Virus record (IMG/VR): IMGVR_UViG_2897375277_000006
Direction: 5' to 3' (one strand)
Length of the DNA stretch: 48,223 bases
Source of the DNA: a virus
Taxonomy: Duplodnaviria; Heunggongvirae; Uroviricota; Caudoviricetes
In this document: piece by piece, positions 15,001 through 16,404 of the stretch
Layout of the letters: every line of letters starts with the position of its first letter
How positions within the stretch are numbered: position 1 is the first letter of the stretch
Program-made: the position numbers

Positions 15001-16404
15001 TTGGTGGGAGTGACAACAAAAAACTGGTCCGAGACATTTACTGAACGCTGGGTTGCAATGAAGCACATTTTTCTACAGCTTGATAGTGATGCTTTATTGC
15101 TTGTGACGAGAACACGTTCAAAACAAAAGGCAGCATTTTTACAGCAAAATATTGCAAAACTGGATTAAAAGCCATATGCTTTATGCAAATTTGGTATGTT
15201 GTAAAAAATGTATAAACCCGCTGCCGAGTGGGTTTTTTTATGCCCTGAGTTGTACTTGTACGGTAAACATGCTGGCTGCTATGTGATGTTTTTTAGCCTG
15301 CATTCTCTTGACGACATTGAATTGCTTTTGCTATGAGTTGTGAGCCAAATGTTATCATCTTGTGTTGAGGTGGTTATGAAGGGTGGTGCACTACTCAGAG
15401 AGTCTTCGCTTTTTATTGCCTATATGGGATTTCTTGGGTGGGGGAGTGCTTATTTTTATGGCTGGGGCACTTCCTTTTACTACGGATTTCCATGGTGGGT
15501 TGTCGGGGCTGGTGCTGATGATGTAGCCAGAAGTTTGTTTTATGCTGTTACTGTTATTGTCATATTCCTGATGGGCTGGGGAATTGGTGTTGTTTTTTTT
15601 CTGGGTATTAAACAAAAAAATAATATGCAGGATTTGAGTTTTATTAGACTTTTTCTTGCGATACTACTGCTTTTTGTTCCTCTCGCTCTGGAGTTTTCAG
15701 TAATTCATCAACAGTTTGTACCAGATGCACTGATATTGTGTATTATTTCCGCATTAATAATTACATTGTTTATCAGATTAAGTAGGAGATTTATTTCTAT
15801 TAAATGTATTGCAGAAGTGTCTTTTATTCGTCATCACAGGATTGAGTGTGTTATGGTCGGATTTATGCTTTATTTCTGGGCATTTTCACTTATTGCTGGT
15901 TGGTATAAACCTCAGTTTAAGAAAGAATATCAGACTCTCTACTATGAGAATATCTGGTATTATGTTCTTGCTCGTTATGATGATCGTTTGGTGTTATCCA
16001 GATCGTTCAATGATAGCAGTAAAAATTTTATCATATATAACATAGGACGTACTGATAGCTTTGAGATTAATGTGGTTCGAGTACGCTAAAATATCCTTGG
16101 AGTAACATAGGTGTTGCTTTTTTGATGGCAGACTGCATATTGTTATTGAATAGTAATCAAAGCATAGGAGTGAATCAGGTTTGTCATGGGGGGATTGCAG
16201 CCTTTGTTAGATATGATTATCATTCCTCGCTCGGCCCTTTAGCTCAGTGGTAAGAGCGAGCGACTCATAATCGCCAGGTCGCTGGTTCAAATCCAGCAAG
16301 GGCCACCAGCCGTCACTAGCTCATCAGGAAAGAGCATCAACTTTCTAAGTTGAGTGTGCGAGGTTCGAGTCCTCGGTGACGGTCCAGTGCCGACTTAGCT
16401 CAGC

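Follow-up and report, generated by a model that had tools for sequence, protein, structure and literature searches.

A TfpB/STM1630-family membrane protein gene with a promoter-like motif of its own lies behind the antiterminator gene of an Escherichia albertii lambdoid prophage

What does a gene encode, and whom does it serve, if it lies where Shiga toxin (Stx) phages carry their late cargo? In Stx phages such as 933W this cargo is found between the antiterminator gene Q, with the late promoter pR' and the terminator tR', and the lysis genes, beside phage tRNAs, and it is transcribed by Q-modified polymerase after induction. The window studied here (the whole stretch of DNA that was analysed, 48,223 nucleotides, IMG/VR virus record IMGVR_UViG_2897375277_000006, Caudoviricetes) holds an AT-rich gene at this place. 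An earlier note, made from the sequence alone, had described it as an about 237-amino-acid, low-GC open reading frame (ORF) for a polytopic membrane protein of a family that it did not recognise, expressed from the late promoter. We find that the family is a catalogued one, TfpB/STM1630, that the gene forms a self-contained accessory cassette with a putative promoter of its own, and that a role at the envelope of the lysogen is the function we tentatively favour.

The ORF at 15340-16089 on the plus strand comprises 249 codons when counted from a GTG, as in the ORF listing, and the observation is confirmed: a real gene is encoded at 15376-16089. Translation most likely starts at the ATG at 15376, giving the anticipated 237 amino acids up to the stop at 16089; family members align from this methionine, and a ribosome-binding site precedes it (Table 1). 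Two other in-frame starts were rejected: GTG 15340, which coincides with or precedes the predicted start of transcription, lacks a ribosome-binding site and stands outside the family alignments that begin at ATG 15376, and ATG 15349, the start in some RefSeq annotations, which has no ribosome-binding site either. For the allele of the phage 434 type, some RefSeq/GenBank records are ten codons longer (247 amino acids), beginning at an upstream in-frame ATG without a ribosome-binding site; this longer RefSeq start would be only ~5 nucleotides from the 5' end of the transcript if the conserved promoter described below is real.

The GC content of the ORF is 0.367, compared to about 0.45-0.52 for the flanking Q and lysis genes. 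Such an AT-rich sequence, annotated in databases only as 'hypothetical protein', might be taken for a chance ORF or a decaying pseudogene. The probability of finding no stop in 249 codons at the base composition of the ORF is 5.6e-8, and the longest open run of 250 codons compares with at most 174 codons among 2000 shuffles. Pairwise dN/dS against eight homologs is 0.07-0.25 over deep divergence and stays below 0.35 even in the variable middle of the gene. Furthermore, full-length homologs are found as far as Neisseriaceae and Pasteurellaceae, and the co-evolution signal in a 39-sequence alignment was strong enough for an AlphaFold2 model with a pLDDT of 81.5 and a pTM of 0.74. The stop-free length and the dN/dS conservation thus exclude a chance ORF, and we consider the probability that it or a decaying pseudogene accounts for the data to be practically negligible; the gene is protein-coding and under purifying selection.

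The protein is 100% identical to Escherichia albertii proteins assigned to PF27470, a family named 'TfpB', and since the identical protein occurs in E. albertii genomes, the window is an E. albertii lambdoid (lambda-like) prophage. PF27470 is the precomputed assignment of all 118 word-indexed homologs, some RefSeq copies bear the NCBI name 'STM1630 family protein', and the PHROG 1521 profile matches with an E value of 6.8e-85 (residues 17-237 against positions 1-221 of 222). Membership in PF27470 is taken from these precomputed assignments and not from a direct profile scan: direct scans of the protein with Pfam-A, NCBIfam and PADLOC gave no match, and PF27470 is apparently not in the Pfam and NCBIfam copies used. 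Scanned against Pfam, the 39 members of the alignment returned noise only, with bPH_10 in two (E 0.045) and TraS in one (E 0.052). A gene of the same family and position is annotated in phage 434 (CPT_434_68, 'putative membrane protein'), with kin in 2B8 and in the prophages of O157:H7 and enteropathogenic E. coli (EPEC) E2348/69. The gene in the window is an allelic variant of the one already annotated in 434, not a new entity; it differs from it in allele class (the proteins are 59.5% identical) and in being followed by tRNAs, whereas a DUF3927/TciB gene follows in 434.

The remote homology search that the earlier note had proposed led to this family and to homologs in Pasteurellaceae and Neisseriaceae. 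A match to a housekeeping transporter, which according to the note would have spoken against its view, did not turn up in the family or fold searches, nor did the library and fold searches run here return a sequence or fold match to known exclusion, abortive-infection, holin, defence or transporter families. The family is small, with 74 hits at E <= 0.001 in a profile search of 1.84 billion representatives. Its members in Enterobacteriaceae belong to Escherichia, Shigella, Citrobacter, Salmonella, Klebsiella, Cronobacter, Enterobacter and Yersinia; distant, full-length members are found in Pasteurellaceae (Mannheimia, Actinobacillus, Avibacterium, Gallibacterium, Pasteurella, H. ducreyi) and Neisseriaceae, and Klebsiella electrica and Mangrovibacter form a remote branch. 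A locus scan with the enterobacterial alignment located the gene in only six species-representative genomes. Near-identical or identical Escherichia alleles also occur on short contigs of metagenome-assembled genomes labelled Veillonella sp. (a 3-kb contig) and Acinetobacter sp.; these are most likely misbinned Escherichia prophage DNA and not part of the true distribution. The name TfpB presumably comes from the tfpB ORF of the Moraxella pilin-inversion region; the searches returned no homolog from Moraxella, and the neighbourhoods of the Pasteurellaceae and Neisseriaceae homologs contain neither a pilin nor an invertase gene.

The N-terminus of the protein, which the earlier note had called rich in Trp, Gly and Phe, is indeed rich in these residues and in Tyr (GWGSAYFYGWGTSFYYGFPWW). 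The hydropathy profile has four strongly hydrophobic segments in addition to the aromatic and Gly-rich N-terminal helix, and in the AlphaFold2 model long helices span residues 10-36, 47-78, 89-111, 116-138 and 155-181, with two short helices within 142-153 and a five-stranded C-terminal beta domain (~55 amino acids) at 187-232. The predicted architecture is one of five transmembrane (TM) helices and a small C-terminal beta domain, in agreement with the polytopic membrane protein proposed earlier. This layout is common to the family, the members of which have ~235-250 amino acids and share the motifs AYxYGWG, YYG[FY]PWW, ARSL, G.Y[KR]P and YY[VI]L in two alignments. Lysine and arginine cluster in the N-terminus, loop 2 and the region of TM4 and loop 4 and are nearly missing from loops 1 and 3; under the positive-inside rule we infer from this distribution that the N-terminus lies inside and the C-terminus outside, so that the beta domain would be periplasmic.

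Conservation is distributed unevenly over the protein. Pairwise identity is 0.83 for TM1 and loop 1 (GWGSAYFYGWG..YYGFPWW), 0.53-0.61 for TM2 with its conserved ARSL start, TM5 and the beta domain, and only 0.20-0.33 for loop 3, TM4 and loop 4. In the proposed topology the best-conserved parts, namely the end of TM1, the YYGFPWW loop, the ARSL start of TM2, the stretch YKPQFKKEY and the beta domain, would face the periplasm, and TM3, TM4 and the cytoplasmic loop would be free to vary. The positions invariant throughout the family are Ala, Tyr and Gly, the invariant residues being mostly aromatic, Gly or Ala, and no catalytic-type signature was found among the conserved residues of the family alignments. 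The lack of such residues favours a binding or modulating role over that of an enzyme or transporter. Most likely, the protein would bind or modulate a component of the host envelope through its conserved periplasmic surface.

The place of the gene in phages is nearly constant. In the window Q, pR', tR', the gene, the tRNAs and the lysis genes follow each other on one strand, which is the order of the stx-type cargo slot. The position between Q with its terminator and the tRNA array, as given in the earlier note, stands: Q matches PF06323, the tRNAs were found at 16233-16542, and tR', the hairpin and T run of which the scan placed at 15214-15235, has a fold energy of -13.7 kcal/mol (z = -4.15), with none of 200 shuffles as stable. 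The same placement close to the late promoter recurs in 74 of 80 viral contigs from IMG/VR, in which we searched for antiterminators with four query types; in these loci the antiterminator gene ends 211-457 nucleotides (once 1332 nucleotides) upstream on the same strand. The antiterminators are Q82-like, a second PF06323-like Q, a lambda-Q-like protein or a DUF1133 protein, and the lambda-Q-like type includes a group of relatives only about 30% identical to the query. Downstream, three kinds of lysis cassette are found, the distance to the holin gene ranges from 0.7 to 4.7 kb, and the cargo in between varies (DUF3927, a DNA methyltransferase, tRNAs). A copy in a phage nearly always comes first behind the antiterminator gene, whatever the type of Q or lysis cassette.

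In a sensitive blastn search, a homologous place was found in 1197 of 5426 complete E. coli genomes (~22%), with a median of two and up to four copies per carrier; O157:H7, O55:H7, O145:H28 and EPEC E2348/69 are among the carriers. In a GenBank-derived phage collection, three of 50,697 records encode a homolog (434, and 2B8 twice). Phage 434 and the O157:H7 prophage have the same backbone of LpxR, YlcG, a Q82-type Q, terminator and gene; in the E2348/69 prophage the antiterminator is another one, and LpxR is missing from the stretch examined. Compared with stx itself, the gene differs in encoding an integral membrane protein and not a secreted toxin, in being located upstream and not downstream of the tRNAs, in its apparent conserved promoter, and in belonging to a family that is also found outside phages.

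The evidence for such a promoter comes from sequence conservation. A TTGAC is located 66-70 nucleotides upstream of the ATG in all ten Escherichia-type loci, even where the sequence further upstream is unrelated, and the full motif TTGACN-N17-19-TATG occurs 67-69 nucleotides before the ATG in 77 of the 80 IMG/VR contigs. The motif is kept in plasmid copies from enterotoxigenic E. coli (ETEC), where Q is absent. We infer that it is a sigma-70 promoter with an extended -10 element, and the gene is probably not dependent on the late promoter alone. Of the late expression proposed in the earlier note, the slot behind Q, pR' and tR' stands; the late promoter is probably not the sole route, given the conserved promoter-like motif.

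The same region marks the border of a cassette. The sequence matches phage 434 at 100% identity between 15000 and about 15278, at 75-93% beyond that point and at about 47-50% inside the gene; because of this abrupt fall, alleles appear to swap within one backbone. Homology with the ETEC plasmid copy spans 15305-16091, with TTGACG exactly at its left edge. Three independent borders, the divergence from 434, the start of the plasmid homology and the promoter motif, coincide at the left edge of the cassette, and the sequence comparison indicates that the tfpB allele is exchanged together with its putative promoter as a cassette within one phage backbone. The gene is therefore best described as a self-contained accessory cassette of ~0.8 kb, roughly 15290-16125, or 'moron', a concept reportedly due to Hendrix and colleagues, of which bor and lom of lambda are the classical examples. 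Deviant GC content and allele swapping with variable presence, two marks of morons, are found here. Like bor and lom, it is an extra gene, deviant in GC content, located between conserved modules and variably present, and the putative promoter of its own would be a further likeness; unlike them it does not encode an outer-membrane protein, it lies at another position and its downstream terminator is weak.

Two routes of transcription would be open to such a gene, its own promoter in the lysogen and, after induction, read-through from pR' across tR'. The terminator tR' would be passed only by Q-modified polymerase, and Q made after induction would bring about heavy read-through from pR', as for stx. 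The route from its own promoter would probably be H-NS-silenced and conditional, because the DNA is AT-rich and the homologous Salmonella gene STM1630 is reported to contain an H-NS-binding site (PMC6785131).

All experimental knowledge of the family concerns STM1630. Its product shows 45% identity to the protein in the window (E 3.4e-68, 100% coverage), and the gene lies between steB and sseJ; its identity was checked with a published deletion primer, which encodes NSSMLLAYLGGLGWG. The two genes are alike in family, length, the layout of five TM helices plus beta domain, AT-richness and horizontal acquisition, and perhaps in having a promoter of their own. They differ in that STM1630 stands in a chromosomal islet with no prophage and no Q, and the Escherichia promoter motif has no counterpart in its upstream region. 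According to PMC6785131, STM1630 is expressed in medium inducing Salmonella pathogenicity island 2 (SPI-2) and inside macrophages, a promoter with a -10 element has been described that two single-nucleotide polymorphisms inactivate in strains of sequence type 313 (ST313), signature-tagged mutants were reported to show attenuation in both calves and chicks, and strain 4/74 replicated more inside macrophages once the gene was deleted. STM1630 also clusters with virulence-regulon genes, in a set including SPI-2 (PMC2639726), and in one screen the mutant was hypermotile.

Other copies lie outside phages as well. Four ETEC plasmids (e.g. pUMNK88_Ent), of which three come from pigs or swine and the fourth from a clinical patient, carry a TfpB-family gene 867 bp from eltA, one of the LT toxin genes; it is divergently transcribed and belongs to a fixed module bounded by insertion sequences (IS3 ... 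eltB eltA <-> tfpB IS481). The spacer between eltA and tfpB was considered as a remnant of a phage late region and this was rejected; it matches only an IS110-family element. Non-phage homologs in animal-associated Pasteurellaceae and Neisseriaceae are solitary genes, lying among housekeeping genes in Neisseria animaloris, Mannheimia and related uncultured samples.

The Salmonella data, the presence of homologs outside phages in host-associated bacteria and the link to virulence loci lead us to favour a factor for lysogenic conversion or fitness that would act on the host envelope to the benefit of the host-associated lysogen, and not a part of the lysis or morphogenesis machinery; this reading is tentative, with a confidence somewhat short of even. 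For the phage-borne gene a conversion role would be carried over from STM1630, which supplies the experimental data. Several points weigh against this reading. The near-universal slot after Q, with no fewer than four types of antiterminator, points to selection for late expression under Q, and this would speak for a function in exclusion or in the lytic cycle. The phenotypes of STM1630 are modest and partly not reproduced: growth in lysogeny broth (LB) was unaffected by the deletion (PMC6785131), and a later study rebuilt the deletion and considered why some phenotypes of the motility screen could be indirect. The argument from host association is weak, since sequence databases over-represent animal-associated bacteria. 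The topology, prediction of which the earlier note had suggested, was derived from hydropathy, the AlphaFold2 model and the charge distribution under the positive-inside rule, and the Lys-rich YKPQFKKEY just after TM5 fits the periplasm poorly. Finally, the -10 hexamer of the putative own promoter (TATGAG or TATGTA) is weak.

The strongest competitor is superinfection exclusion or another anti-phage function, in which the protein would block DNA entry or abort infection, with little of it made in the lysogen and much after induction. A polytopic inner-membrane moron carried by a prophage, with a likely promoter of its own, fits such a function, and its conserved face would lie in the periplasm, at the site where tape-measure proteins and the DNA of an incoming phage reach the membrane. 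Alleles of at least two classes, which share only 59% identity, replace each other in backbones that are otherwise identical, many genomes carry two to four copies, and solitary accessory genes in varied chromosomal contexts would also fit defence genes. P22 SieA, lambda RexB, T4 Imm and HK97 gp15 are likewise small, polytopic proteins of the inner membrane, and their accessory prophage genes can be expressed in the lysogen; however, no sequence or fold similarity links them or other known exclusion and defence proteins to the TfpB family, their genome location is different, and TfpB homologs are also solitary chromosomal genes. The known lambdoid exclusion genes are located in the immunity or tail-end regions and are not known from the late operon. 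In addition, PADLOC gave no match, no annotated exclusion, Rex or Imm family was hit in Pfam or PHROGs, a dN/dS that does not reach 0.35 even in the variable middle gives no sign of an arms race (diversifying selection), and the Salmonella member behaves as a virulence-regulon gene. We regard exclusion as possible but on balance unlikely.

An accessory role in the lytic cycle under the control of Q, either tuning holin triggering and the timing of lysis or preventing loss of progeny on debris, would fit a membrane protein that is encoded next to holins and is almost always the first late gene, 211-457 nucleotides (once 1332) after Q, with several types of Q and at least three kinds of lysis cassette. 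The rarity of homologs among the 50,697 phage records, three in all, shows that the gene is dispensable for lambdoid lysis, and homologs stand alone in the Salmonella islet, on ETEC plasmids and in Pasteurellaceae and Neisseriaceae. The holin lies 0.7-4.7 kb away behind unrelated cargo, and no similarity to holins or antiholins was found in Pfam or PHROGs; a lytic role thus appears improbable. It might also be that the protein is an orphan immunity protein against a membrane-targeting bacteriocin or a contact-dependent toxin, spread by phages and plasmids, as its small size, its several predicted membrane helices, the missing catalytic signature and its occurrence as a solitary accessory gene in many unrelated contexts would allow. 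No linked toxin gene was found in the phage, Salmonella, Pasteurellaceae and Neisseriaceae contexts examined, and Pfam scans gave no similarity to known immunity families. This explanation is purely one by analogy and very improbable.

The features around the gene are collected in Table 1. The LpxR-family gene directly precedes YlcG and Q and is encoded on the other strand, an arrangement common to phage 434 and the O157:H7 prophage, and is a second envelope-modifying moron near a TfpB-family gene. The segment 13000-15632, which contains Q, is 97% identical to phage 434, where Q is annotated as 'Q82-like'; the start of Q (MNT) was adopted from a note in the annotation of 434. The putative pR' is conserved in phage 434 and one E. 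coli prophage; it matches the consensus at 8 of 12 positions, below the threshold of 9 used in the promoter scan, and is therefore not in the list of that scan. The site equivalent to tR' carries a terminator annotation in phage 434. The weak hairpin behind the gene is absent from the terminator-scan list, and the one behind the tRNA array would insulate the lysis genes from transcripts started at the gene's own promoter.

Table 1. Features at and around the TfpB-family gene in the window
Feature	Position	Strand	Basis and remarks
LpxR-family outer-membrane lipid A deacylase gene	13046-14005	-	PF09982, E 8e-40
Small ORF, YlcG-like reading	14342-14464	+	Equivalent annotation in phage 434
Antiterminator Q, Q82 type	14479-15168	+	PF06323 Phage_antiter_Q, E 1.7e-91
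Putative late promoter pR'	15152-15180	+	TTGCAA, 17 nucleotides, TATGCT; read from sequence; overlaps the end of Q
Intrinsic terminator tR'	15214-15241	+	Terminator scan; 9-bp stem, then T run
Putative own promoter	15308-15337	+	-35 TTGACG 15308-15313, 18-nucleotide spacer, TG 15329-15330, -10 TATGAG 15332-15337
Ribosome-binding site GAGG	15367-15370	+	Read from sequence; five bases 5' of ATG 15376
Coding sequence, TfpB/STM1630-family inner-membrane protein, 237 amino acids	15376-16089	+	PF27470, PHROG 1521, AlphaFold2, hydropathy, charge distribution
Weak hairpin, then U run; possible leaky cassette terminator (low confidence)	16099-16123	+	-9.6 kcal/mol, z = -1.43
Four-tRNA array: CAU, Arg-UCU, Thr-UGU, Gly-UCC	16233-16542	+	ARAGORN, Rfam
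Terminator-like hairpin right after the tRNA array	16554-16580	+	Scan; 8-bp stem, 4 GC pairs, then T run
Class II (S21-type) holin	ORF 17772-18032, probable start near 17817	+	By inspection; equivalent 434 gene annotated as class II holin
Endolysin reading	ORF at 18032		Equivalent 434 gene annotated as signal-anchor-release (SAR) endolysin
Spanin reading	ORF at 18514		Equivalent 434 gene annotation

The first tRNA of the array (CAU, 16233-16308) was called Met by ARAGORN and is 99% identical to a prophage tRNA of E. coli RM11911 listed as tRNA-Ile in RefSeq; an ileZ-like tRNA-Ile2 is its probable identity, presumably of the kind found in Stx phages. Between the tRNAs and the holin gene lies a region of ~1.2 kb without a convincing ORF (16543-17771), which corresponds to the place where Stx phages carry stx. 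Its sole match in the phage collection concerns the first 186 nucleotides, 73% identical to the 'tciA' region of phage JLK-2012, and it contains two strong terminator-like hairpins at 16554-16573 and 17098-17118. It may be a regulatory region or a remnant of lost cargo.

It might be, and we consider this unlikely, that TfpB/STM1630 is an unrecognised class of phage-spread envelope factor with an activity coupled to the late switch by Q, either a new type of exclusion or defence protein or a membrane modulator that accompanies toxin and virulence loci, given its place in the stx slot, in the fixed module with eltAB on ETEC plasmids and at the flank of sseJ in Salmonella. The gene described here is a very common and well-delimited member of a family without an assigned function, and even the textbook phage 434 carries an allele of it. 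To learn what it does would help to complete the picture of how lambdoid prophages, relatives of Stx phages among them, alter their hosts.

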